Origin: Verrucomicrobiota bacterium
GTDB taxonomy: Bacteria > Verrucomicrobiota > Verrucomicrobiia > Limisphaerales > UBA11358
Direction: 5' to 3'
Length of the DNA stretch: 42,311 nt
Assembly (NCBI GenBank): GCA_050013895.1
Contig: JBEKEJ010000001.1
Span: forward strand, 1-42,311
Every line of letters starts with the position of its first letter. The stretch's first letter is position 1. Shown here piece by piece: positions 4,169-31,567 of the stretch. The position numbers and the translations under genes are program-made. A model generated the notes under the pieces. It was not told the DNA's origin and searched no databases. It was given only the letters and a program-made list of their open reading frames with translations.

Positions 4169-4189
4169 GGCAATAATATACTTGACTCA
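4169..4189. repeat. Left terminal inverted repeat (IR-L)
   Basis: GGCAATAATATACTTGACTCA. Its exact reverse complement is at 6448-6468. Confidence 0.9.
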
Positions 4190-4426
4190 TTGGCTTTTCT
4201 TTAGTAGGAAAAATACCCCTGTGTAAATCACGCCTAGAACAAACCATTCAGACCAAAGTTTGAGCAGGTCTGGTCGGTAATGATTCTCCGGCTGGATAAA
4301 AAATAAGCTCAACCTTTGATGGTGTTGATGAATAATTGGGTCGTTGTAATACCACGGACACAATGTCAGCGTTGCCGCAAAAAGGACGAGACATACAGCC
4401 GTCAGATATTTTTGAGGTTTGTTCAT
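4187..4426 (-). CDS. Small two-TM membrane protein (IS passenger ORF, start uncertain)
   Basis: The ATG at 4426 gives MNKPQKYLTAVCLVLFAATLTLCPWYY...LWSEWFVLGVIYTGVFFLLKKSQ, with two hydrophobic helices. A longer version initiated at TTG 4597 would overlap the transposase stop. The stop codon (4187-4189) lies inside IR-L. No Shine-Dalgarno motif precedes 4426. Confidence 0.4.
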   Translation of the reverse strand: MNKPQKYLTAVCLVLFAATLTLCPWYYNDPIIHQHHQRLSLFFIQPENHYRPDLLKLWSEWFVLGVIYTGVFFLLKKSQ

Positions 4427-4574
4427 AAACTTTGTTTTGGATTTTGTTGTGATTTTCTTTTCACGCGCTCGTCCCTGATTTTCTTGTTCAACTCCGCCTT
4501 GGGAACCCGCATTAACCCCTTGGCAAGAGCTTGGAACTTTTGGAACGGAGTTTTCCCCGATATGGTTTTTTGAT

Positions 4575-5513
4575 TCATACTGGTCGAGGTTCTCCAATCA
4601 GTCGTGAATAGGTCAATCGTTTTCCAAAAATGCCTTTGACAGCTTCCAAAAAACGGTTTGAGTCGTTTTCTTCCCTCAAATTAAACCGAAACGCCTGTTC
4701 GTCGAGGTAGCGAAACAAATGAAATGGCTCGACGCTGACATAGGTGCCCTTGATGCCCCGTTTGAGCAGGCTCCAGTAATTTTCCATGCCGTTCGTATGC
4801 ACATTGCCGCGAACGTATTCTTTTGCATGGTCAATCACTTGATGGATGAAATCGCGCGCAAGCCCTTTGTATCCTACCCAATAGTCAGTGAAAATTTGTG
4901 CGCCTTTCTCGACGTTTTGATAAACCTCGTTTTGGAGCGTCTGTAATTTTGTATTGGGGATGTGTTTGGTTTTAACCTTACCATCCCGCTCCAAAATCCC
5001 CATGACGATTGCCTTGCCAACTCCGCCCGTGCCGCGTCCACGTCTGCGATTTCGGTCTTTGTGCATATTGCGGGAAAGCCCGCCAATCCAAGTTTCGTCA
5101 ATCTCGACCTCTCCGTTGAACTTTTCAAAGGTGCCAGTCTGCATGGCGAGTCTTATTCTTTGCAGCATGAACCAGGCTGTTTTTTGCGTGACTCCGATTG
5201 CCCGATGGACTTCATAGGAACTGACACCGTTTTTATCATTGGCAATCATCCAGATTGCCGTAAGCCATTTGTCCAACGGCAACGCACTATCTTCAATAAT
5301 CGTGCCGACGCGCACGGAGAACTGGCCTTTTTTTGTGCAGCGTTTGCATTTCCAGATTTTGCGCGTGGCGATGAATGAAACATCTTCGCATTGGCAGCGC
5401 GGGCATTTCACCTTTTCAGGCCAGCGCAGTTTAACCATGAAATCAAACGCCACTTGCTGATCTGCAAAATAGCGGACTGCTTCGACTAGGGTTTGTGGAA
5501 ATTCGTTATTCAT
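4575..5513 (-). CDS. IS1595-family transposase (zinc-ribbon N-terminus + ISXO2-like DDE domain)
   Basis: The ATG at 5513 gives MNNEFPQTLVEAVRYFADQQVAFDFMVKLRWPEKVKCPRCQCEDVSFIATRKIWKCKRCTKKGQFSVRVGTIIEDSALPLDKWL..VEIDETWIGG. This is the classic IS1595 transposase layout. Confidence 0.9.
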   Translation of the reverse strand: MNNEFPQTLVEAVRYFADQQVAFDFMVKLRWPEKVKCPRCQCEDVSFIATRKIWKCKRCTKKGQFSVRVGTIIEDSALPLDKWLTAIWMIANDKNGVSSYEVHRAIGVTQKTAWFMLQRIRLAMQTGTFEKFNGEVEIDETWIGGLSRNMHKDRNRRRGRGTGGVGKAIVMGILERDGKVKTKHIPNTKLQTLQNEVYQNVEKGAQIFTDYWVGYKGLARDFIHQVIDHAKEYVRGNVHTNGMENYWSLLKRGIKGTYVSVEPFHLFRYLDEQAFRFNLREENDSNRFLEAVKGIFGKRLTYSRLIGEPRPV

Positions 5514-6393
5514 TTTCTTTTTTTGATTTAGTTTTGTCGTCCTTGGACGCGGCTGCCATCGCGCGTGCAAACGCATTGTTCCTAACAGATTGGATTGACT
5601 CTCTTTCCCTTTGCGACTTGGCCACCAATTCCTTTAAGAAGTCACGGTTTCGGTAAGCTTTTCCAAGTTCGTCAACTCTTGCTGCTATATTGGAAAGTTC
5701 CTCGACTTCTTTTTGGGGGAACATTTGGACGTAAGCGTCTTTATTGTCTATTAATTGCTTCAAAATTTGTCCGGTCAGAGAGGTCATACTGTGAATAATT
5801 CCGAGTTTCGTTTTTCCCCCACAGTAAGCATCGTGTTTTTTAACTATTTCCACCACATAAACAGCGAGCACCGCAGCGTGATCGAAAACCATGTCCGGCG
5901 CAGAAAGTTCACTCAATAAATAAGCACCCAAATTTGCCCCGCATCCAATCGCTTCATAAAATGAATTCACTTTGTTTGCTATTCCAACAATCATGTCTAT
6001 TGTAAAAAGACAGGGCTTGCCGTCGAAAAAATAGGCAATCATCAGTTCGCATCCCAACTCATGTTTCCAAACAAATTCGCGCAGTTCTTCCACCGTGCAA
6101 TCGCCTTGTTGAAATCGAACCCTGTCTTTTAGTTGCCGCATGGCTCGTTCCGCAAGTTCTGCAACCATTCTGTAATCGGTAATTTCCTTGTCTTTTGCCA
6201 AGCTGTTAAAAATTTCAACCGCTTGTCCTGAAAATGGCGCATACCCAGCCTGCGCGACTAAAGCGGTAAGGTTGGCAAACTCGACACTGCTTATCTTTTC
6301 CGTATCGGTTCGCTTCGTCGTGCCAGATGTGGTCTGACTATCACTGGCCAATACGATTGCATTTTCACAAATTATTCCGACGATGATTGTCAC
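5506..6393 (-). CDS. Proteasome-beta/HslV-type Ntn (N-terminal threonine) hydrolase with a roughly 100-aa C-terminal extension
   Basis: The GTG start at 6393 is preceded by AAGGA. The N-terminus is (M)TIIVGIICENAIVLASDSQTTSGTTKRTDTEK, which places Thr at residue 1, Asp at 17 and Lys at 32. A G-x-G turn is present as AIGCGANLG. The stop overlaps the transposase ATG (ATGAATAA). Confidence 0.65.
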   Translation of the reverse strand: MTIIVGIICENAIVLASDSQTTSGTTKRTDTEKISSVEFANLTALVAQAGYAPFSGQAVEIFNSLAKDKEITDYRMVAELAERAMRQLKDRVRFQQGDCTVEELREFVWKHELGCELMIAYFFDGKPCLFTIDMIVGIANKVNSFYEAIGCGANLGAYLLSELSAPDMVFDHAAVLAVYVVEIVKKHDAYCGGKTKLGIIHSMTSLTGQILKQLIDNKDAYVQMFPQKEVEELSNIAARVDELGKAYRNRDFLKELVAKSQRERESIQSVRNNAFARAMAAASKDDKTKSKKENE

Positions 6394-22801: not shown

Positions 22802-25114
22802 ATGAACCCGAAATCCTTTCACACCTGGAAATTCTTCCGCGCCGGCGGCTTCAACCAGGTTGTCCTCAACTCGGGAGCGGATCTCCTCGACCTCGACCAG
22901 TTAGACCAGAAGCTCTGGGTCGCCTTGGCCTGTCCCACCACGGGCGTCGAGTTCGATAAAACCACACTCGCGCTGATCGACACGGACAAGGACGGTCGCA
23001 TCCGCGCGCCGGAACTGATTGCCGCCGTCAAATGGGCCGTTGGCCTGCTCCATAACCCGGATGACTTGCTTAAGGGCAGCCCGACGCTGCGTCCGGCGGC
23101 GATCAACGACGCCAATCCGGAGGGTAAATTGATTGCCAATTTTGCCAGGCAGGTGCTGGGTAAGACGGATAACGCGGAAATCACCATTGACGAAGCCGCC
23201 ACCGCCGCGCAGACCTTCGCCGCCAAACCGTTCAACGGCGACGGCATCGTGCCCGCCGACTCCGCCGGTGACGACGCCACCAGGGCGGTTATCGCCGACA
23301 TCATCACCTCCCTCGGTGCGGACACCGATGCCAGCGGTAAACCCGGCGTCAGCCAAGCCAAAGTGGATCAGTTTTTTGCCGAGGCCGCAGCCTATTCTGA
23401 TTGGTGGAAAAAGGCCGAAGCTGACACCGCCGTGTTGCCGCTGGGCGTGAACACCGAAGCGGCCTCCGGCGCCGTCAAGGCTGTCAAAGCCAAGGTGGAC
23501 GACTATTTTGCGCGCGGACGGCTGGCCGCCTTCGATCCGCGCTCCGTCAATGCGCTGAACCGTGACGAGAAGGAATACGCCGCCTTGGGTGCCAAAGATT
23601 TGACCAACACGCACGCCGACATTGCCAGTCTGCCGCTGGCGAAAGTCGGAGCCACCGCGCCGCTGCCGCTGACGCAAGGCATTAACCCGGCGTGGGCCAA
23701 CGCCATTGCCGCGCTGCAAACCAACGCCATCGTCCCCTTGCTCGGCGCCCGAACCGTGCTGACCGAGGCCGATTGGAACGCGCTGGTCGGCAAACTCGCC
23801 GCTTTCGATGCCTGGAATGCGGTCAAGACCGGCGCCGCGGTCGAAAAAATCGGATTGAAACGCGCGCGGGAGATTCTCGCCACGAAAGCCAAAGACACCC
23901 TGACCGCTCTCATCGGCAAAGACAAGACTGAGGAAGGACATGCCCAAGCCGTAATTGGCCTGCACCGCCTGATCCACTACCACCGCGATCTGGCTAAACT
24001 TTGTCGTAACTTCGTCAATTTTGCCGATTTTTATGGCCGGAAGGACAAAGCCATTTTCCAGGCGGGCACGCTTTATCTCGACCAGCGCAGTTGCGATCTC
24101 TGCCTCATGGTGGATGACGCGGGCAAACATGCCGCGATGGCCGCGCTCGCGGGGACCTACCTCGCCTATTGTGACTGCACGCGCAAAGGCAGCGGGGAAA
24201 AACTGTCCATCGTCGCCGCGTTCACCGGCGGCGATTCGGACAATCTCATGGTGGGCCGCAACGGGATTTTCTACGACCGCAAAGGCCGCGACTGGGACGC
24301 CACCATAACCAAGCTCGTGGACAACCCCATCAGCATCCGGCAGGCGTTCTGGTCGCCTTATAAGAAGCTGGTGCGCCTGATTGAGGAACGCGCTGCCAAA
24401 CAGGCCGCGGCCGCGGAGGCCGGTGCCAACGCGCAATTGACTGCCGCTGCCAACGCTCCAGCTGCCCCGGTGGCGCCAGCGGCCCCAGCGGCCCCAGCCG
24501 CTCCGGCCAAACCCGCATTTGACCCCAGCGTCATCGCCCTGCTCAGTTTGGCGTTGGGCACTTTGGCAGCGGCGTTTGCGGGTCTTTTGGGTTTCCTTGG
24601 CAAATTTGAAACGTGGCAGGTGCCGCTGGTCATCGTCGGCATCATGCTGGTCATTTCCGCTCCGTCCATGGCCATTGCCTGGTTGAAGTTGCGCAAGCGC
24701 AACCTCGGGCCGATCCTCGACGCCAACGGCTGGGCCGTGAATGCCAAGGCCAAAATGAATGTTCCATTCGGCGGCGCGTTGACCGGGGTGGCGGCCCTGC
24801 CGCCAGGTTCCACCTTCGGCGCGGCGGATGCGTATGCCGAAAAACCCTCCATCTGGCCCAAACTGCTCCTCTTCGCCTTTGGCGTCTGGTTCATCTGGGC
24901 ATTCCTCAATGACAGCGAAGGCCGCTTGTGGCGCTGGACTGAAGGCAAAGACAGCCTCGCTGGTATTCATAAGATTGCCAAAGTTCCCGTGGCCATCCAG
25001 AAAGCCTTGGATGAACAAATCGAGAAGACTAAGACTCCGTCGACCCCGGCCGTTCCAGCCGCCCCGTCGGCCCCGGCTACTTCGACAACTTCCGCCGCGC
25101 CGGGTACGCCATAA
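22802..25114 (+). CDS. Large orphan protein: about 560-aa soluble region with one canonical EF-hand loop, Ala/Pro linker, C-terminal 3-TM module
   Basis: 770-aa ORF. DTDKDGRIRAPE (nt 22979-23014) fits the 12-residue EF-hand loop exactly. TM segments are VIALLSLALGTLAAAFAGLLGFL, PLVIVGIMLVISAPSMAIAWL and LLLFAFGVWFIWAFL. Confidence 0.7.
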   Translation: MNPKSFHTWKFFRAGGFNQVVLNSGADLLDLDQLDQKLWVALACPTTGVEFDKTTLALIDTDKDGRIRAPELIAAVKWAVGLLHNPDDLLKGSPTLRPAAINDANPEGKLIANFARQVLGKTDNAEITIDEAATAAQTFAAKPFNGDGIVPADSAGDDATRAVIADIITSLGADTDASGKPGVSQAKVDQFFAEAAAYSDWWKKAEADTAVLPLGVNTEAASGAVKAVKAKVDDYFARGRLAAFDPRSVNALNRDEKEYAALGAKDLTNTHADIASLPLAKVGATAPLPLTQGINPAWANAIAALQTNAIVPLLGARTVLTEADWNALVGKLAAFDAWNAVKTGAAVEKIGLKRAREILATKAKDTLTALIGKDKTEEGHAQAVIGLHRLIHYHRDLAKLCRNFVNFADFYGRKDKAIFQAGTLYLDQRSCDLCLMVDDAGKHAAMAALAGTYLAYCDCTRKGSGEKLSIVAAFTGGDSDNLMVGRNGIFYDRKGRDWDATITKLVDNPISIRQAFWSPYKKLVRLIEERAAKQAAAAEAGANAQLTAAANAPAAPVAPAAPAAPAAPAKPAFDPSVIALLSLALGTLAAAFAGLLGFLGKFETWQVPLVIVGIMLVISAPSMAIAWLKLRKRNLGPILDANGWAVNAKAKMNVPFGGALTGVAALPPGSTFGAADAYAEKPSIWPKLLLFAFGVWFIWAFLNDSEGRLWRWTEGKDSLAGIHKIAKVPVAIQKALDEQIEKTKTPSTPAVPAAPSAPATSTTSAAPGTP

Positions 25115-25210: not shown

Positions 25211-25648
25211 TGGCAGATGCCGCTGGAATCGCAGGCATCCTCCTCGCGATCTTCCATCCCCTCAATGATCATCGCGTAGCTCAAACTGCGGAAACGCAAA
25301 CTCGGCCCCATCCTCGACGCCAAGGGTTGGGCTGTAAACAAGGCAAAAATCAATGTGCTCTTCGGCGGTTCGCTGACCGAAGTCGCCGTCCTGCCGCCCG
25401 GTTCGCAGCGCGACCTGGTGGATCCCTTCGCCGAGAAATGGAAGACGTGGGGATTGCAGGCAACGATTATCGTCATTCTGTTGCTTGCCGGCTATGGGTA
25501 CTTTGGCAAGCTCGACAACGTGCTGCCCGACACAATCAAGAGCACGACCGTCCTTGGCACCAATGCGCCGGCTTCCGGACGTCATTCTCCTGCCGATTCG
25601 GGCGTGACGAATACAAAGGCGACAGCAACTGGCTCGCTGGCAAAGTAG
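25211..25648 (+). pseudogene. Decayed paralogous copy of the C-terminal membrane module of the upstream 770-aa gene
   Basis: WQMPL..IAGILLAI..SIPSMIIA*LKLRKRKLGPILDAKGWAVNKAKINVLFGGSLTEVAVLPPGS aligns with parent WQVPLVIVGIMLVISAPSMAIAWLKLRKRNLGPILDANGWAVNAKAKMNVPFGGALTGVAALPPGS. It needs two compensating 1-nt frameshifts. A TAG (25277-25279) stands where the parent has TGG (24680-24682). Confidence 0.55.
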
Positions 25649-25827: not shown

Positions 25828-27453
25828 ATGAAATCGAAAATCATATACGTTAGATACGGCTTGGCCGTGGCCGTAGCCGCCATCCTCGCCGGTTGTGCGT
25901 CAAACTCAACCTTAACCCAAACCGTCGATCACCCGTCCAATTATCGTTCAGGTTCCAGTTTGGACGAAGTGAATGCCGGGTATGACACCTTTGGCCGTAA
26001 ATTGGCCGAACCAGCCCCGACCCCGGCCCCGGCAGAATCCCAGGCCGCGCCCGCTCCGGCAGCACCCCAAGCCGCACCGGCCCCGGCTGCTCCACCCCCG
26101 GCCCAGCCTTGCACTGCCGAAATCAAAAGCGGCCTGGTTCACCTTGCCAAGAAGGCTCCCGCCGAAGTCGCCTTGGGCCAGGAATATATGACCGAACTGG
26201 ATGCGACCGCCGTTGTTTGTGCTGAAAACATTGTCATTACCGACCACGTTCCCGCCGGGGCCACTTATGTCCGCAGCGAACCCGCCGCCCAGGTGGACGG
26301 TGACAAGCTGGTTTGGAACATTTCCGACATGGAGGCCGGCGAGGCCCAGAGCATCAAAGTCTGGCTGCGCGCCGACAAGGAAGGCATACTGAACAACTGC
26401 GCCACAGTCAGGGCCGACCCCAAAGTTTGCGCCGCCACGCGCGTGGTCAAACCTAACATCGAATTGACCAAGAGTGAGCCGGCCGACGTGAGCATCTGCG
26501 ACCCGATTCCGGTGAAGCTGGTGGTCAAAAACACCGGCAGCAGCCGGTTGACGGGCGTGAAGGTGACCGAAAACCTGCCTGACGGATTGACCAGCGAAGG
26601 CAAGAACAGCCTCGCGTTTGACGCGGGCAGTCTCGCCCCCGGCGAAAGCAAGGAAATCAAATTCAACGCCACCGCCGCCACCACCGGCAAGTATCAGAAC
26701 TCGGCCCAAGCCACGTCCGACCAGGGCGTCAGCGCCAAGGCTTCCGCTTCGACTGCCGTTCATCAGGCCGTCCTGGCGCTGAGTTGCAAGGCGCCCGAAC
26801 AGCAATACATCGGACGTGCCTTTAACGTCCTATTCACGGTTTCAAACAGCGGCGACGTCCCGGCTGCCGGGGCGCAAGTCGTGGTGCCGGTTCCAGCCGG
26901 TTTGACAGTGAACTCGGCCACGGCTGGCGGTCATGTGTCCGGCAACAATCTCGTTTGGGATTTGGATTCGCTGAAGGTGAAAGCACCGCAGGATCTGTCC
27001 GCCACGTTTGTGAGTGCGAACGCCGGCACGTTTGATTTCAACGCCACGGCCAAGGGCACTTGCGTCGCGCCGGTTTCAACCTCATGCTCAACCAAAGTGG
27101 TGGGCATCGCCGCCATCCTGCTGGAAAAGGCGGATAATCCCGATCCGGTCGCGGTTGGCGAAACGACCACCTACACCGTCAAGGTCACAAACCAGGGCTC
27201 GGCCGACGATTCCAACGTGCGGATGGTCGTAACCATTGCGCCGGAGCTCGTTCCCATCAGCGCCTCGGAAGGCACGATTGACGGCCAGACCGTCACCATG
27301 CCGACTGTGCCACGCCTGGCGCCCAAAGCCGCCGTCACCTACACGATCGTGGCCAAGGGCGTGAAAGCCGGTGATGGACATACCAAGTTCACCCTGTCGT
27401 CCGACGTTTTGAAGTCGCCGATTGCGGCCGAGGAAAGCACCACGGTTTACTAA
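25828..27453 (+). CDS. OmcB-like DUF11-repeat lipoprotein (homologue of the chlamydial 60-kDa cysteine-rich envelope protein)
   Basis: It has the lipobox AILAGCAS and a Pro/Ala linker. Blocks such as ITDHVPAGATYVRSEPAAQVDGDKLVWNISDMEAGEAQSIKVWLRADKEG follow. The C-terminus GETTTYTVKVTNQGSADDSNVRMVV...VPRLAPKAAVTYTIVAKGVKAGDGHTKFTLSSD...TTVY is co-linear with chlamydial OmcB as I recall it. Confidence 0.75.
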   Translation: MKSKIIYVRYGLAVAVAAILAGCASNSTLTQTVDHPSNYRSGSSLDEVNAGYDTFGRKLAEPAPTPAPAESQAAPAPAAPQAAPAPAAPPPAQPCTAEIKSGLVHLAKKAPAEVALGQEYMTELDATAVVCAENIVITDHVPAGATYVRSEPAAQVDGDKLVWNISDMEAGEAQSIKVWLRADKEGILNNCATVRADPKVCAATRVVKPNIELTKSEPADVSICDPIPVKLVVKNTGSSRLTGVKVTENLPDGLTSEGKNSLAFDAGSLAPGESKEIKFNATAATTGKYQNSAQATSDQGVSAKASASTAVHQAVLALSCKAPEQQYIGRAFNVLFTVSNSGDVPAAGAQVVVPVPAGLTVNSATAGGHVSGNNLVWDLDSLKVKAPQDLSATFVSANAGTFDFNATAKGTCVAPVSTSCSTKVVGIAAILLEKADNPDPVAVGETTTYTVKVTNQGSADDSNVRMVVTIAPELVPISASEGTIDGQTVTMPTVPRLAPKAAVTYTIVAKGVKAGDGHTKFTLSSDVLKSPIAAEESTTVY

Positions 27454-27469: not shown

Positions 27470-27502
27470 AACCGGCGGGTCGAAAGGTCCGCCGGTTTTT
27501 TT
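27470..27502 (+). terminator. Rho-independent terminator after the OmcB-like gene
   Basis: AACCGGCGG-gtcgaaaggt-CCGCCGGTT followed by TTTTT. Confidence 0.7.
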
Positions 27503-27619
27503 ACGCTTTCAAATTGACTCGCCGGAAAACGCAAAGCGGGAAGGGGCGATAAACCCGGCATGGAAGTCGCTAAATTGGCGGCTGGCGGCGAAGGTCGCCG
27601 CCGGAAAGAGAGCAAAATT

Positions 27620-27883
27620 ATGAAGAAAATCATCATTGCCATGGTGAGTTCCCTGCTGTTCGCCGGTTCAATTGCGCTGGCGGAACCAAGCGCTGCGGAC
27701 CAGAAATGGCTCGAAGTTGTCCAAAAAATGGTCGAAAAGGGACAAACCAAATTGTCCACTCCCAGCCCGGAACGGGTCAAGCTGTTCCAAACCTGGGCGG
27801 GCCAGCATGGCCTCACGGTCGTGGTAACCCAGGCCGATTCAAATTACAAAATCGAGGTCACCAAGCCGGTCGCCAAGAATTAA
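27620..27883 (+). CDS. Small secreted protein, unknown function
   Basis: The ATG at 27620 gives MKKIIIAMVSSLLFAGSIALAEPSAADQKW, a signal peptide. 87 aa, no Cys. Confidence 0.5.
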   Translation: MKKIIIAMVSSLLFAGSIALAEPSAADQKWLEVVQKMVEKGQTKLSTPSPERVKLFQTWAGQHGLTVVVTQADSNYKIEVTKPVAKN

Positions 27884-29512: not shown

Positions 29513-31567
29513 GTGGGAAAAGTTGTATTTTGCATCGCGGCGTTTCTGCTTTCCGCCACTCCGACCGGAGCGGCGGTTTTGCTGGGTGATTCCTTCAATT
29601 ATCCGGAGGGTCCGCTGGTAACGGTGAGCGGCGGCGTGTGGGCGCATCATAGCGGTTCGGTTGCCGGGGAAGTGATGCTCCAGTCAGGCTGGGTGATGCT
29701 GAACGAAACCGACACCGAGGATGTCAACGCGCTCCTGGCCGGGCAGCCTTATCCCGCTTCCGGCGCAACGAACGTGTTCTACGCGAGTTTCACGTTTAGA
29801 TTCACCGTGCTGCCCGGCAGTGGCGGCGCTTACTTCGCGCATTTCAAAAATTCGTCCAGCGGTTTTCGGGCGCGCATCTGGGCGTTGACCGGCGGGGCGG
29901 CGCCGAACAAGTTCCGGCTGGGAATTTCTTCGACCGACGGCTCGGTCATCAGCGCCACGAACCCCACGGATTTGAGCCTCAACACGGATTACACCGTCGT
30001 GACCCGCCTCGTGAACAGCAACTCGAGGAGCACACTTTGGATCAATTCGGAATCGGAGAGTGATGCCGGCATTTCGACGGATGAAAGCGCTTCCTCTTGC
30101 ACCGTGGCCAGCTATGCGTTTCGTGAAAGTGCCGGCGAAGGAGCGCTGAATATTGACAATCTGCGGGTCGGCACGTCGTTTGCGGATGTGGCCCCCGATG
30201 GGTCGGGACTGCCGCCGGCCATCACATCCCAATCGCAGAACCAGACCGTCACGAACGGCGCAAACGTCACTTTCAGCGTAAGCGCCGGCGGCACACCGCC
30301 GCTCAGTTATCAATGGCAGTTCACCCCGACATCGGATGTCGGAATTCACGGCACGAATCTTCCCGGAGAGGTGAGTTCCAATCTCACGCTGACGGACGTG
30401 ACTTTCGACCAGGCAGGCTTTTATGCCGTCGTGGTCACCAACGCCGCCGGTTCGACCATCAGCGACCCCGTCGCCTTGAGCGTCTGGCGCGCCACAACTC
30501 CGGCATTTTCATATCTTACTTACAACGTGCACGGGAACGGCCTGACCAATTGGAGCACGAACCTGTGGCACGTGCAGGCCATCGGCCGGCAAATGCAATA
30601 CCTCGATCCCGATATCATCACCTTCAACGAAATCCCGGTCACCAACAATTGCACGGCGCAGATGTCGGATTTTGTCACGGCCTTCCGCCCAGGCTATCAT
30701 CTCGCCACCAACTCCGCGGACGACGGGTTCATTCACAGTGTCATCCTCAGCCGTTATCCCATCGTCTCGTCGGCCAGTTGGTTGCACGGTTCCGATCTCG
30801 CGCCTTACGGTTATACCGGGTCGGGGTTCACCCGCGATTTGTTCGAAGCGCAAATTTCCGTGCCCGGCTTTTCGCGGCCGTTGCACGTGTTCACGGCGCA
30901 TTTGAAATCGGGACAGGACGCTGATTCGGCAGCGAAACGGTCGGCGGAAGCGGGCGCCGTTTCCAATTTTTTCGCCACGATCTATCTGCCGGCCAATGGC
31001 GGGCAACCTTGCGTGTTGAGCGGCGACCTGAACGAAGACATTGTCCGGCCGCCGGCGGGCAACCGACAGGCCATCCAGCGCCTGGTCGGCGGGCCGACTG
31101 GATTGCGTCTGACCACCGCCGTCAATCCTTTCACCAGCAGCGAACTGACCTGGTCCATTCAGAACACCGACGGCCCGACCAGGCGTTACGATTACATCCT
31201 GCCCTGCGCGATGCTGTCGTCGAACATTGTCAGCAGCCAGGTTCTCCGGACGGACTGGCTGACTCCGATGCCGCCCGATTTGTATAGCAACGACGACAAA
31301 ACCGCGTCGGACCATCTGCCCGTGTTCATGACATTTGGCAATCCGTTCAACGTGCCATTTCGTCTGCTTGCCATCGGGATGACGAACCAGATCGTGTCGT
31401 TGAAATGGGAATCCGCCGGTAACCGCCTCTACGACGTCGAAGTCTCAACCGATCTCGTCGCTTGGACGCCGCTGGCCACCGGCCTCGTCGCCACTGGCGC
31501 CAATTTCACGTTCAGCACGAATGTGCCGGACGGCGCGAAATTCTTTCGCATCCGCCGCGCGCCGTGA
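29513..31567 (+). CDS. Secreted multidomain protein: lectin/LamG-like N-domain, Ig-like (I-set) domain, endonuclease/exonuclease/phosphatase (EEP) domain
   Basis: A GTG start with signal peptide. The Ig-like block reads ITSQSQNQTVTNGANVTFSVSAGGTPPLSYQWQF...AGFYAVVVTNAAGS. The EEP motifs are LTYNVHG, ITFNEIP and the terminal SDHLPVFMTF. Confidence 0.8.
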   Translation: MGKVVFCIAAFLLSATPTGAAVLLGDSFNYPEGPLVTVSGGVWAHHSGSVAGEVMLQSGWVMLNETDTEDVNALLAGQPYPASGATNVFYASFTFRFTVLPGSGGAYFAHFKNSSSGFRARIWALTGGAAPNKFRLGISSTDGSVISATNPTDLSLNTDYTVVTRLVNSNSRSTLWINSESESDAGISTDESASSCTVASYAFRESAGEGALNIDNLRVGTSFADVAPDGSGLPPAITSQSQNQTVTNGANVTFSVSAGGTPPLSYQWQFTPTSDVGIHGTNLPGEVSSNLTLTDVTFDQAGFYAVVVTNAAGSTISDPVALSVWRATTPAFSYLTYNVHGNGLTNWSTNLWHVQAIGRQMQYLDPDIITFNEIPVTNNCTAQMSDFVTAFRPGYHLATNSADDGFIHSVILSRYPIVSSASWLHGSDLAPYGYTGSGFTRDLFEAQISVPGFSRPLHVFTAHLKSGQDADSAAKRSAEAGAVSNFFATIYLPANGGQPCVLSGDLNEDIVRPPAGNRQAIQRLVGGPTGLRLTTAVNPFTSSELTWSIQNTDGPTRRYDYILPCAMLSSNIVSSQVLRTDWLTPMPPDLYSNDDKTASDHLPVFMTFGNPFNVPFRLLAIGMTNQIVSLKWESAGNRLYDVEVSTDLVAWTPLATGLVATGANFTFSTNVPDGAKFFRIRRAP

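Follow-up and report, generated by a model that had tools for sequence, protein, structure and literature searches.

The window, a stretch of 42,311 nucleotides of verrucomicrobial DNA, carries a gene for an exported envelope lipoprotein that is rather likely to be the cysteine-poor counterpart, from a free-living lineage, of chlamydial OmcB, with a rod that would be stapled within itself and a low cysteine content that would be the ancestral state. OmcB has a central part in the disulfide-cross-linked envelope, which makes up for the scarcity of peptidoglycan in elementary bodies. Intermolecular disulfides join it into a detergent-insoluble envelope complex, and its expression comes late in development. 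It is generally regarded as an envelope protein specific to Chlamydiales (PMC1403754). The gene and the parts of its product are as follows.

25828..27453, + strand: OmcB-like lipoprotein gene (ATG start, 541 residues plus stop codon; Chlam_OMP6 and four DUF11 stretches)
25828..25896, + strand: predicted signal peptide, residues 1–23, with lipobox LAGC, from reading of the sequence; Cys23 is the predicted lipidated residue
25897..26127, + strand: Pro/Ala-rich disordered tether, residues 24–100, from pLDDT below 60 and composition
26128..26448, + strand: domain 1, residues 101–207, a Chlam_OMP6-type β-sandwich (PF03504 match at residues 104–181)
26449..26766, + strand: domain 2, residues 208–313, DUF11/CLIPPER (best DUF11 stretch at residues 213–299)
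26767..27099, + strand: domain 3, residues 314–424, DUF11/CLIPPER-like, with C320/V353/F404 in the triad columns, and Cys412 and Cys420
27100..27450, + strand: domain 4, residues 425–541, ending in ESTTVY, the most conserved domain, with invariant columns

Architecture of the Window Protein

The N terminus, MKSKIIYVRYGLAVAVAAILAG followed by Cys23, has the makeup of a bacterial lipoprotein signal, with a Lys/Arg-containing n-region, a hydrophobic h-region, and then Leu-Ala-Gly-Cys, and the protein is predicted to be lipidated. The lipobox Cys is kept in 74 of the 80 clade members that have an N terminus, and a lipobox-like Cys column is common to the window protein, environmental chlamydial OmcB, and the OmcB of Chlamydia pneumoniae, itself a predicted lipoprotein (Heinz 2009 supplement). 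The AF2 model has a mean pLDDT of 86.6; residues 1–93 are disordered, and residues 95–541 are all-β and comprise four domains. Domain 1 contains Cys131, Cys191, and Cys201 together with the candidate triad K108/D139/N190; Cys95, in the tether, closely precedes it. Domain 2 contains Cys224 and the candidate triad K215/E248/N291, and domain 3 has lost a Cys pair at columns 335 and 391.

The PF01345 (DUF11/CLIPPER) profile matches in four stretches with 136.1 bits against a cutoff of 24.6. The NCBIfam search returned the generic repeat TIGR01451 (58.8 bits) and no OmcB-specific model match; this library cannot test OmcB membership because it also lacks an OmcB-specific match when queried with an authentic Chlamydia OmcB or with P0012, the relative named by NCBI. 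A sequence search of the PDB with the single protein gave no match, and the family profile gave weak, generic Ig-like matches only; an OmcB-family structure was not found in the PDB. Foldseek comparison of the model with the PDB retrieved generic tandem β-sandwich arrays (HYDIN, integrin α legs, PrgB, and α-2-macroglobulin; TM-scores of 0.16–0.36) and no functional lead.

Relationship to Chlamydial OmcB

The first-pass annotation had described the product as co-linear with OmcB along its length. This holds for the four folded domains, from approximately residue 104 to the last residue, but not for the first ~100 residues (signal peptide and linker), which are unalignable. BLASTP aligned residues 104–541 with residues 103–548 of a Chlamydia sp. 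OmcB (P0122) at 32% identity with 8 gap positions (E = 1e-65), and the comparison with C. pneumoniae OmcB (P0126) gave 31% identity (E = 6e-63). The two sequence blocks that had been singled out as resembling OmcB are present in the window protein, and BLASTP pairs them with the matching blocks of the database chlamydial OmcB. Profile-profile alignment (hhalign) with OmcB gave a probability of 100% and an E value of 2.5e-64 over 434 columns, reaching the C-terminal Tyr. Residues 104–181 match positions 12–90 of the 91 in PF03504 (Chlam_OMP6) with 41.1 bits, above the gathering cutoff of 34.1, and the best match of each of the four domains is the OmcB domain of the same position, with domain 4 reaching 42% identity (E = 1.8e-31).

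All 18 OmcB-type proteins tested, which were those from the chlamydial search (16 of the chlamydial-type clade and two of the Cys-rich P0230/P0236 lineage), align to the window protein end to end with 179–234 bits, whereas non-PVC DUF11 controls give 40–125 bits with partial coverage. Because the non-PVC DUF11 proteins score far lower, the similarity extends beyond the generic DUF11 repeats to which, as the annotation had allowed, it might have been limited. The Chlam_OMP6 domain, the four-domain co-linearity, and a closeness greater than that of unrelated DUF11 proteins place the protein, on sequence grounds, in the OmcB family, and the proposal of a full-length, cysteine-poor OmcB homologue in a non-chlamydial PVC genome stands. 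The two proteins are of one length class (541 residues as compared with 548–558 in chlamydial OmcB) and share four β-sandwich domains in the same order with Chlam_OMP6 first, a signal peptide with a lipobox-type Cys column (in C. pneumoniae and environmental chlamydiae), 31–35% identity over ~440 residues, and a C-terminal E-S/N-T-x-V/I-Y.

The N-terminal linkers differ. Residues 25–99 of the window protein are 41% Pro plus Ala, have three Lys/Arg as compared with seven Asp/Glu, and lack the basic XBBXBX motif; Chlamydiaceae linkers have 12–18 Lys/Arg, and the motif is present in three of the four examined. OmcB has been reported as a surface-exposed, heparin-binding adhesin with a basic N terminus, and the relevance to that role that had been suggested for the window protein is weak in view of its acidic, Pro/Ala-rich linker.

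Cysteine Content and Pairing

The nine Cys of the window protein (residues 23, 95, 131, 191, 201, 224, 320, 412, and 420) make up 1.7% of its residues, as compared with 4–6.6% for the Chlamydiaceae and roughly 10% for environmental chlamydiae (chlamydial range, 4–11%), in keeping with its first description as cysteine-poor. The counts are 6–14 in the window's clade, 22–37 in Chlamydiaceae, and about 50–65 in environmental chlamydiae. Besides the lipobox, the Cys columns shared with chlamydial OmcB are Cys420, found in all chlamydial clades and conserved family-wide, and Cys201, found in environmental chlamydiae only; Cys224 and Cys412 are specific to the window's clade, designated clade A.

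The mature window protein has eight Cys, an even number. Positions 191, 201, 224, 320, 412, and 420 are Cys in 119–120 of 120 clade representatives. Of the 120, 80 have Cys at both columns 335 and 391 and the other 40 at neither, a single one never being present, and Cys95/96 is always accompanied by Cys131 (57 of 57). With each Cys either invariant or covarying with a partner, this pattern points to intramolecular disulfides, and in this apparent internal pairing the window protein differs from chlamydial OmcB. The count in the aligned region is odd in 36 of 120 relatives, some of which are truncated sequences, and with such counts some relatives may carry unpaired thiols.

Putative Isopeptide Triads

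DUF11 corresponds to the CLIPPER domain, in which a Lys-Asn bond with a catalytic Asp has been seen crystallographically (9IFR; PMC12617251). These domains usually form the stalks of surface adhesins, and disulfides alongside the isopeptide bonds are common in them (PMC12617251). The window protein resembles them in its DUF11 match of 136 bits, in its predicted Ig-like all-β fold, and in the candidate triads of Lys, Asp/Glu, and Asn at the motif positions of domains 1 (K108/D139/N190) and 2 (K215/E248/N291); it differs in that domains 3 (C320/V353/F404) and 4 (K434/E473/T519) have no triad, the isopeptide bonds themselves being putative here. It also has only four domains, lacks an adhesive head, and carries the lipobox as its sole sorting signal, unlike CLIPPER fibrillar adhesins. 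The triads were mapped by motif, spacing, and strand position, since 9IFR is too divergent to be aligned, also by way of a generic CLIPPER repeat. The Lys-to-acid spacing of 33 in domain 2 is equal to that from K715 to D748 in 9IFR. The domain 2 triad is complete in 48 of 50 clade A proteins, 8 of 8 of a second verrucomicrobial clade (clade B), and 18 of 18 from environmental chlamydiae; just half of the window's clade has Asn at column 190, in domain 1. Lys-Asn isopeptide bonds would probably form in domains 1 and 2 of the window protein.

The predicted Lys/Asp/Asn triads, a new observation for this family, differ among clades. (i) Clade B has complete triads in domains 1–3. (ii) The chlamydial-type clades have two at most, and environmental chlamydial OmcB has complete triads in domains 2 and 3. 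(iii) Clade A has C320/V353/F404 in place of the domain 3 triad. One possible reading, which we advance tentatively and hold to be more doubtful than the homology itself, is that the covalent chemistry of the OmcB scaffold switched in the course of PVC evolution. The ancestor would have carried Lys-Asn staples, kept in domains 1–3 of clade B and domains 2 and 3 of environmental chlamydial OmcB; in domain 3 of clade A the staple would have been exchanged site for site for a disulfide, with the invariant Cys320 in the Lys column, the acid changed to Val, Leu, or Met, and the Asn to Phe; and the pathogenic Chlamydiaceae would have dropped all triads as OmcB came to be cross-linked through intermolecular disulfides. 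If so, environmental chlamydial OmcB would contain isopeptide bonds, a report of which was not found in the literature searched, and the verrucomicrobial proteins would offer a soluble, cysteine-poor path to the first structure of an OmcB-family protein.

Phylogeny and Polarity of the Cysteine-poor State

A neighbor-joining (distance-based) tree was rooted with a single distant outgroup, the module of which has no Cys, and supported by 200 bootstrap replicates. The Cys-rich proteins, from Chlamydiota and one unknown lineage, form a nested clade in 195 of 200 replicates and leave the cysteine-poor proteins paraphyletic; clade B joins the Cys-rich clade in 181. With Cys-containing columns removed, these values are 175 and 148, respectively. 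Monophyly of all cysteine-poor PVC proteins is found in 0–6 of 200 replicates. Because the Cys-rich state is confined to one nested clade, the cysteine-poor state looks ancestral, with Cys gained later in the chlamydial lineage.

The suggestion that the window protein resembles a pre-cross-linking form fits the rooted tree in this respect, but the closest sister of the Cys-rich clade is clade B rather than the window's clade A, which has derived features of its own. Clade B proteins (P0232, P0237, and P0239) have the same architecture, 40–44% identity to the window protein, and 8–10 Cys, and they also occur in Verrucomicrobiota. They differ in their grouping with the Cys-rich clade and in their complete triads in domains 1–3, as compared with C320/V353/F404 in domain 3 and the clade-specific Cys224 and Cys412 of clade A.

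A further Cys-rich protein, P0144, is labeled "Victivallaceae" and was rejected as a Cys-rich OmcB of Lentisphaerota. Because the gene order at its locus, gltX-omcA-omcB-tsp-rpsL-rpsG-fusA-rpsJ, is chlamydial and matches the CT445–CT435 order of C. trachomatis, the label is probably wrong.

Distribution and Earlier Reports

The nearest relatives are labeled Verrucomicrobiota, Limisphaerales, or Pedosphaera. In a genome scan, the family was widespread in Verrucomicrobiota, with two copies in some genomes; the query represented the non-chlamydial clades and the taxon list was biased to Verrucomicrobiota, so that the scan says little on other PVC phyla. The novelty is less than the first-pass annotation implied. 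A relative with 72% identity is already named "OmcB family cysteine-rich outer membrane protein" by NCBI, and proteins nearly identical to an NCBI-named one are called "hypothetical." A Cys-free planctomycete homologue of CT443, Rhodopirellula baltica CAD72259, was reported in 2006 (Griffiths & Gupta 2006, PMC1403754). Like the window protein, CAD72259 is an OmcB homologue of a non-chlamydial PVC organism without the cysteines of OmcB, but it has 907 residues with similarity mainly in the C-terminal region (E = 3e-25), whereas the window protein has the length and domain count of OmcB and an end-to-end match to it. A Dehalococcoidia control (L066; 881 residues, no Cys, 125 bits, match confined to the C-terminal module) resembles the R. 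baltica case. In a full-text literature search, a paper specifically on verrucomicrobial OmcB homologues was not found.

Gene Neighborhood

Two further features flank the gene.

22802..25114, + strand: gene for a 770-residue membrane protein, a recurrent neighbor and candidate functional partner
27470..27497, + strand: intrinsic-terminator-like hairpin (12-bp stem with 8 GC pairs, then TTTTT), 17 nucleotides past the stop codon, a consensus match of a kind no more numerous in the region than expected from shuffled sequence

The 770-residue protein has an EF-hand loop at residues 60–71 and three hydrophobic helices near its C terminus, and it is highly conserved, its top 120 relatives being 81–91% identical. 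Its recurrence beside OmcB-like genes is a new observation: the two genes adjoin in 15 related loci, in 14 on the same strand, with the partner on either side and a spacing of 65–363 bp in 12. The pairing occurs in clades A and B, often with the 770-residue gene following the clade B gene, and is found in only 10 of the 33 loci with 3 kb or more of flanking sequence on each side; many clade A loci have a gene for a ~190-residue lipoprotein in its place. In the window, a terminator-like hairpin and about 700 bp with a pseudogene remnant lie between the two genes. No neighbor of this type is present at the chlamydial omcB locus L075. Pfam, NCBIfam, and PDB searches with the 770-, 107-, 412-, and 468-residue neighbor proteins gave no functional clue.

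In a scan of open reading frames filtered for lipoprotein signal peptides, no gene for an OmcA-type small Cys-rich lipoprotein was found within 3 kb in the window or at 68 other related loci; such a gene was present only at L075 (82 residues, 12 Cys, lipobox). Without the filter, the scan for small Cys-rich reading frames gave out-of-frame, GC-rich noise. The window locus thus differs from the chlamydial one in having no omcA neighbor, and the host is a free-living-type verrucomicrobium to which a role in the cross-linked envelope of elementary bodies is inapplicable. With its low Cys content, no omcA-like neighbor, and no basic motif, the window protein does not look like a functional OmcB of chlamydial type.

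Alternative Interpretations

Two alternatives concern ancestry. DUF11 is very widespread and typical of adhesin stalks, so that the window protein might be a generic DUF11/CLIPPER repeat protein, such as a fibrillar-adhesin stalk, whose resemblance to OmcB reflects common repeats and not whole-protein ancestry, and the TIGR01451 match given alone by NCBIfam and the generic Ig arrays from Foldseek would agree with this. It is nonetheless refuted by the positional domain matches, the gap between 179–234 and 40–125 bits, the Chlam_OMP6 match above its curated cutoff, and the hhalign result (100%, 434 columns); a single co-linear alignment with 8 gap positions from domain 1 to the last residue, and a build that, in contrast to fibrillar adhesins, has only four domains and a lipobox and lacks any adhesion or sorting domain, also speak against it, and we regard it as extremely improbable. 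It is improbable, to a lesser degree, that the verrucomicrobial genes descend from a horizontally acquired chlamydial omcB that then lost Cys, which would make the cysteine-poor state secondary. The use of one distant outgroup for the root, the drop in support for clade B plus the Cys-rich clade to 148 of 200 without Cys columns, the family-wide Cys420, and the Cys201 common with environmental chlamydiae leave room for such a transfer. Against it stand the depth, diversity, and paraphyly of the two verrucomicrobial clades (monophyly of cysteine-poor PVC proteins in 0–6 of 200), the wide occurrence of the family in Verrucomicrobiota, at times with two copies per genome, and the lack of Cys in more distant homologous modules of Dehalococcoidia and Rhodopirellula alike; three complete triads in clade B as compared with at most two in chlamydial-type clades fit loss in the chlamydial direction.

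The other two concern function. An outer-membrane-anchored, outward-facing adhesin that binds polysaccharide or a host or particle surface would suit the reported heparin binding of OmcB, the usual place of CLIPPER domains in adhesin stalks, and the adhesin-like design of a long flexible tether with an Ig-like rod. This is unlikely: the region of the glycosaminoglycan-binding basic motif at the OmcB N terminus is not conserved, no adhesive tip domain was recognized with Pfam, and the C-terminal domain is the most conserved one rather than a variable tip. We give about the same small weight to a two-gene envelope module in which the protein would form, for example, a periplasmic layer or tether that needs the 770-residue inner-membrane protein for assembly or attachment. 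The 15 adjacent loci (14 same-strand, 12 with short spacing), the partner's position upstream or downstream by locus, the presence of the pairing in both clades, and the extreme conservation of the partner all favor a link, but the pairing is seen at just 10 of 33 loci, many clade A loci have the ~190-residue lipoprotein instead, the hairpin and pseudogene remnant separate the genes in the window, no known domain was found in the partner (Pfam, NCBIfam, and PDB), and L075 has no such neighbor.

Proposed Role and Significance

As a free-living counterpart of OmcB, the window protein would begin with a LAGC signal peptide and a disordered tether of ~75 residues rich in Pro and Ala, continue as a rod in which four Ig-like β-sandwiches stand in tandem (one Chlam_OMP6 followed by three DUF11/CLIPPER), and end in the ESTxVY C terminus that the family conserves. 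The lipid anchor would fix the protein to an envelope membrane, most likely the outer membrane, and the tether would hold the rod at a distance from it. Four intramolecular disulfides formed from the eight mature Cys and probably the Lys-Asn isopeptides in domains 1 and 2 would act as staples, and because it would be stapled covalently within itself, the rod may serve as a structural or surface module that withstands mechanical stress and proteolysis. Whereas OmcB in the elementary bodies of Chlamydia is a node in a lattice of intermolecular disulfides, such a protein would not be. The cysteine-poor state would have come first, and the chlamydial lineage would later have loaded the same scaffold with Cys.

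The existence in free-living Verrucomicrobiota of a large family whose members are full-length, cysteine-poor, and orthologue-like would mean that the scaffold is older than its cross-linking function, and it would give a direction to the change, a gain of Cys in the chlamydial lineage. It also exposes an annotation problem, in that proteins without a high cysteine content are receiving the name "OmcB family cysteine-rich outer membrane protein." The putative clade-specific isopeptide triads, if real, would be a new element of OmcB biochemistry, and the cysteine-poor relatives may be tractable proteins with which to solve the fold and to ask what the scaffold does without cross-linking.

Gene, Protein, and Predicted Structure

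The OmcB-like gene is closed by a terminator-like hairpin at 27470-27497.

25828..27453, + strand, OmcB-like ORF with an ATG start and 541 codons

The N terminus read from the sequence, MKSKIIYVRYGLAVAVAAILAG followed by Cys, is a lipoprotein signal peptide with the lipobox LAGC. In Pfam the protein matches DUF11 (PF01345; 136.1 bits, four stretches) and, over residues 104-181, positions 12-90 of the 91 in Chlam_OMP6 (PF03504), a family named after chlamydia, at 41.1 bits and above the curated cutoff of 34.1 bits. The sole NCBIfam match is the generic repeat TIGR01451, and a sequence search of solved structures gave no match. The AlphaFold2 model, made from an 89-sequence alignment, has a mean pLDDT of 86.6; residues 1-93 are disordered, and residues 95-541 are all-beta and form four β-sandwich domains (D1-D4) with pLDDT mostly >90. 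A Foldseek search of the PDB with this model returned only generic tandem Ig-like arrays with low TM-scores.

Co-linearity with Chlamydial OmcB

A C. trachomatis OmcB bait sequence served only for retrieving real database entries, among them numerous OmcBs of environmental chlamydiae as well as P0126 (C. pneumoniae) and P0122 (Chlamydia sp., named OmcB in NCBI/UniRef). BLASTP aligned residues 104-541 of the window protein with 103-548 of P0122 in a single alignment (32% identity, E 1e-65) that has eight gap positions and stops at the C-terminal Tyr of both proteins; identity to P0126 is 31% (E 6e-63). Comparison by hhalign of profiles from 16 verrucomicrobial relatives and 18 chlamydial OmcBs gave a probability of 100% and an E value of 2.5e-64 over 434 columns reaching the C terminus. 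The co-linearity proposed in the first-pass annotation is thus borne out for residues 104-541, and both sequence blocks it quoted occur in the protein; the first ~100 residues could not be aligned with chlamydial OmcB.

All 18 OmcB-type proteins tested from the chlamydial search (16 of the chlamydial-type clade and two of the Cys-rich P0230/P0236 lineage) align end to end with the window protein at 179-234 bits, whereas DUF11 controls from Dehalococcoidia (125 bits), Gemmatimonadales (54), Chloroflexia (40), and Thermoleophilia (40) align with partial coverage. When the window protein and OmcB were each cut into four domains and compared pairwise, the best OmcB match of every window domain was the domain at the same position (O1-O4), and off-diagonal pairs were weaker.

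Scores of same-position domain pairs
D1-O1, 58.5 bits
D2-O2, 45.1 bits
D3-O3, 42.7 bits
D4-O4, 96.3 bits

The resemblance is thus specific and follows domain position. The alternative raised with the original claim, that the likeness comes from generic DUF11 repeats cross-matching and that OmcB scores no better than other DUF11 members, was rejected because the scores separate and the domains match by position. Homology and architecture place the window protein in the OmcB sequence family.

Organism and Distribution

The nearest relatives are labeled Verrucomicrobiota, Limisphaerales, Pedosphaera, or "subdivision 3", and an identical protein lies in the same gene order on a JGI metagenome contig. 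The rest of the window includes ordinary chromosomal genes (YidC, sigma-54 response regulator, CCA-adding enzyme, Nth, and lipoate ligase). Among the candidates scored in the protein search, 386 are relatives at E <= 0.001. Scanning one genome per species with sequence patterns gave 70 loci, nearly all of them verrucomicrobial and one labeled Planctomycetota, with two copies of the gene in some genomes; the patterns were built from non-chlamydial clades only, and the resulting taxon list says little on other phyla. Within its large verrucomicrobial clade (clade A), the window protein is an ordinary member.

Several records look mislabeled (L003, L012, L023, L043-L045, L048, L053, and L062): these assembled MAG contigs, most of them third-party TPA records, bear OmcB-like and partner genes of verrucomicrobial type under the labels "uncultured Klebsiella sp.", "Klebsiella pneumoniae", "Bifidobacteriaceae", and "Bifidobacterium sp.".

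Cysteine Content and Phylogeny

The first-pass annotation was correct in calling the protein Cys-poor, as it has nine Cys (residues 23, 95, 131, 191, 201, 224, 320, 412, and 420) versus 22-37 (4-6.6%) in Chlamydiaceae OmcB and about 50-65 (about 10%) in environmental chlamydial OmcB; 120 relatives have 6-14 (about 2%). Of 120 cluster representatives, 119-120 have Cys at positions 191, 201, 224, 320, 412, and 420. The columns at Leu335 and Ser391 are both Cys in 80 of the 120 and neither in 40, never singly (phi = 1.0), and the window copy, without either, represents a joint loss. Cys95/96 is always accompanied by Cys131 (57/57 clade representatives). By this pattern, the Cys of the window clade are not random leftovers; being conserved and paired, they carry the signature of predicted intramolecular disulfide pairs, and the eight mature Cys of the window protein would make four such disulfides possible. 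Besides the lipobox, the only Cys columns common with chlamydial OmcB are Cys420 (all clades) and Cys201 (environmental chlamydiae); several chlamydial Cys columns do come close to 224, 320, and 412, a few residues away, so that small register shifts are possible.

A neighbor-joining tree of 44 sequences and 438 columns was rooted with the homologous C-terminal module of one Cys-free Dehalococcoidia protein. Clade B is a second verrucomicrobial Cys-poor clade.

Groupings in the neighbor-joining tree (all columns; Cys-containing columns removed)
Window clade A monophyletic: 199/200; 200/200
Chlamydiota-type clade monophyletic: 200/200; 200/200
Cys-rich clade (Chlamydiota + P0230/P0236): 195/200; 175/200
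Clade B + Cys-rich clade: 181/200; 148/200
All Cys-poor PVC proteins monophyletic: 6/200; 0/200

These splits place Cys-richness on one nested clade, so that on this distance tree with its single outgroup a Cys-poor state would be the parsimonious ancestral one. The general idea of a "pre-crosslinking form" fits the nesting of the Cys-rich clade, but the window clade is not the nearest sister of chlamydial OmcB.

P0230 (L071:57-1712) and P0236, with 52 and 29 Cys, form a deep Cys-rich lineage sister to all chlamydial-type OmcBs. This lineage, known from Logan assemblies only, has retained the K/D/N triads of D2 and D3, and the P0230 linker is a Cys-Pro repeat (…CPAPCPAPCKPACPPACPPVCKPVCPPACPPAC…).

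Putative Isopeptide Triads

DUF11 is now called "CLIPPER" in Pfam. The 2025 crystal structure 9IFR of a CLIPPER domain has an intramolecular isopeptide bond, Lys715-Asn806, with Asp748 as the apparent catalyst, and about 30% of CLIPPER domains also carry disulfides (PMC12617251). Because 9IFR gave no sequence alignment when one was attempted for triad mapping, the columns were set by conserved landmarks: the first-strand Lys, the acid that precedes the conserved D/E-x-L-P proline by three residues, and the Asn that follows a conserved Gly by four. A complete triad was scored as K/[DE]/[ND].

Complete triads (residues of the window protein; clade A, clade B, P0230 clade, environmental chlamydiae, Chlamydiaceae-like)
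D1 K108/D139/N190: 26/50, 8/8, 0/2, 0/18, 0/11
D2 K215/E248/N291: 48/50, 8/8, 2/2, 18/18, 0/11
D3 C320/V353/F404: 0/50, 8/8, 2/2, 18/18, 0/11
D4 K434/E473/T519: 0/50, 0/8, 0/2, 0/18, 0/11

In D2 and D3 the Lys and the acid are 33 residues apart, as are K715 and D748 in 9IFR, and motif and spacing together point to putative isopeptide triads in OmcB-like domains. In D2 of the Chlamydiaceae-like sequences, a Lys and a Glu align one residue ahead of the triad columns, so that the register may be shifted there. In Chlamydiaceae the D2 Lys and acid are both offset by exactly one residue (…ICVKQ…, …VVVENPVP…) as measured against flanking invariant prolines, with environmental chlamydiae in register; the offset may either abolish or preserve a putative triad. 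In D3 of clade A, the column of the isopeptide Lys is occupied by the invariant Cys320, hydrophobic residues stand at the two remaining triad positions, and the invariant Cys412 is specific to the clade, which suggests a possible isopeptide-to-disulfide swap.

Genomic Neighborhood

22802..25114, + strand, 770-aa protein gene, upstream of the OmcB-like gene
~25250..25648, + strand, pseudogenized partial duplicate of the 770-aa gene 3' end
27560..27883, + strand, 107-aa protein, directly downstream of the OmcB-like gene
29513..31567, + strand, 684-aa protein with an immunoglobulin (Ig_3/I-set) domain and an endonuclease/exonuclease/phosphatase domain
4187..6393, - strand, low-GC patch (46% versus about 60%)

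The 770-aa protein has a canonical EF-hand loop DTDKDGRIRAPE (residues 60-71) and three C-terminal hydrophobic helices, is without a signal peptide, and had no match in Pfam, NCBIfam, or the PDB. It is a highly conserved verrucomicrobial protein with >7,998 database relatives, the top 120 being 81-91% identical. In 15 related loci its gene adjoins the OmcB-like one, on the same strand in 14, with a spacing of 65-363 bp in 12 of those 14; depending on the locus it precedes or follows the OmcB-like gene, in clades A and B alike. Of 33 loci that extend at least 3 kb to either side, only 10 have it as a neighbor. These linkages make it a candidate functional partner. The reading frame of the remnant reproduces ...PSMxIAWLKLRKRxLGPILDAxGWAVN..., the true C terminus of the 770-aa gene in relatives such as L001; TAG at 25277-25279 replaces a Trp codon, and a JGI gene call (25355..25648, 97 aa) falls within it.

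The 107-aa protein, with an internal signal-peptide-like segment MKKIIIAMVSSLLFAGSIALA and no family match, is kept near the OmcB-like gene in six related loci. Many other clade-A OmcB-like genes have a different recurrent neighbor, a ~190-aa lipoprotein without a copy in the 42-kb window, in 27 loci (for example L010:3031-3603, …SGCATVRVPEAKQE…, and 26 others). In three clade-B loci (L072:7644-8813, L073:7151-8320, and L074:4617-5786), a second, shorter DUF11 protein (389 aa) is encoded directly downstream of the OmcB-like gene (P0239). The low-GC patch, containing an IS1595-family transposase (4575-5573) and a proteasome-subunit-like ORF (5506-6390), is probably an insertion.

Relation to Functional Chlamydial OmcB

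Chlamydial OmcB and the window protein share homology and architecture, but the latter lacks three defining features of the functional cysteine-rich protein: high Cys content, an omcA neighbor, and a basic N-terminal motif. No small Cys-rich (omcA-type) lipoprotein was found within 3 kb in the window or 68 other related loci scanned. At the chlamydial locus L075, gltX is followed by an omcA-type lipoprotein (82 aa, 12 Cys), omcB, tsp, and rpsL-rpsG-fusA-rpsJ, the Chlamydiaceae arrangement seen in C. trachomatis CT445-CT435, and its OmcB is 59% identical to the C. trachomatis OmcB bait sequence. L075 is a 424-kb MAG contig (JAVWIA010000001.1) labeled Victivallaceae (Lentisphaerota) at NCBI, a label that is probably wrong.

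Chlamydial OmcB reportedly acts as an adhesin that binds heparin, through its basic N-terminal region. The matching 75-residue linker of the window protein has three K/R, seven D/E, and 41% Pro+Ala, and the XBBXBX motif is absent from it; Chlamydiaceae linkers have 12-18 K/R and an XBBXBX-type motif in three of four examined.

CT443 has been treated as Chlamydiales-specific, with a Cys-free homologue in Rhodopirellula baltica alike mainly in the C-terminal region (Griffiths & Gupta 2006, PMC1403754), and Heinz et al. (2009, PMC2811131) reported, at cluster level, that the majority of the outer-membrane proteins predicted in chlamydiae have PVC orthologues. Our literature search found no paper on the verrucomicrobial OmcB-like proteins themselves. 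In databases, P0012 (72% identical to the window protein) is named "OmcB family cysteine-rich outer membrane protein" by NCBI and the closer P0003 "hypothetical protein"; the "cysteine-rich" annotation should not be applied to the window protein. The protein is moderately relevant to how the chlamydial envelope evolved and to its structural biology, and would be somewhat more so if the isopeptide/disulfide pattern is true.
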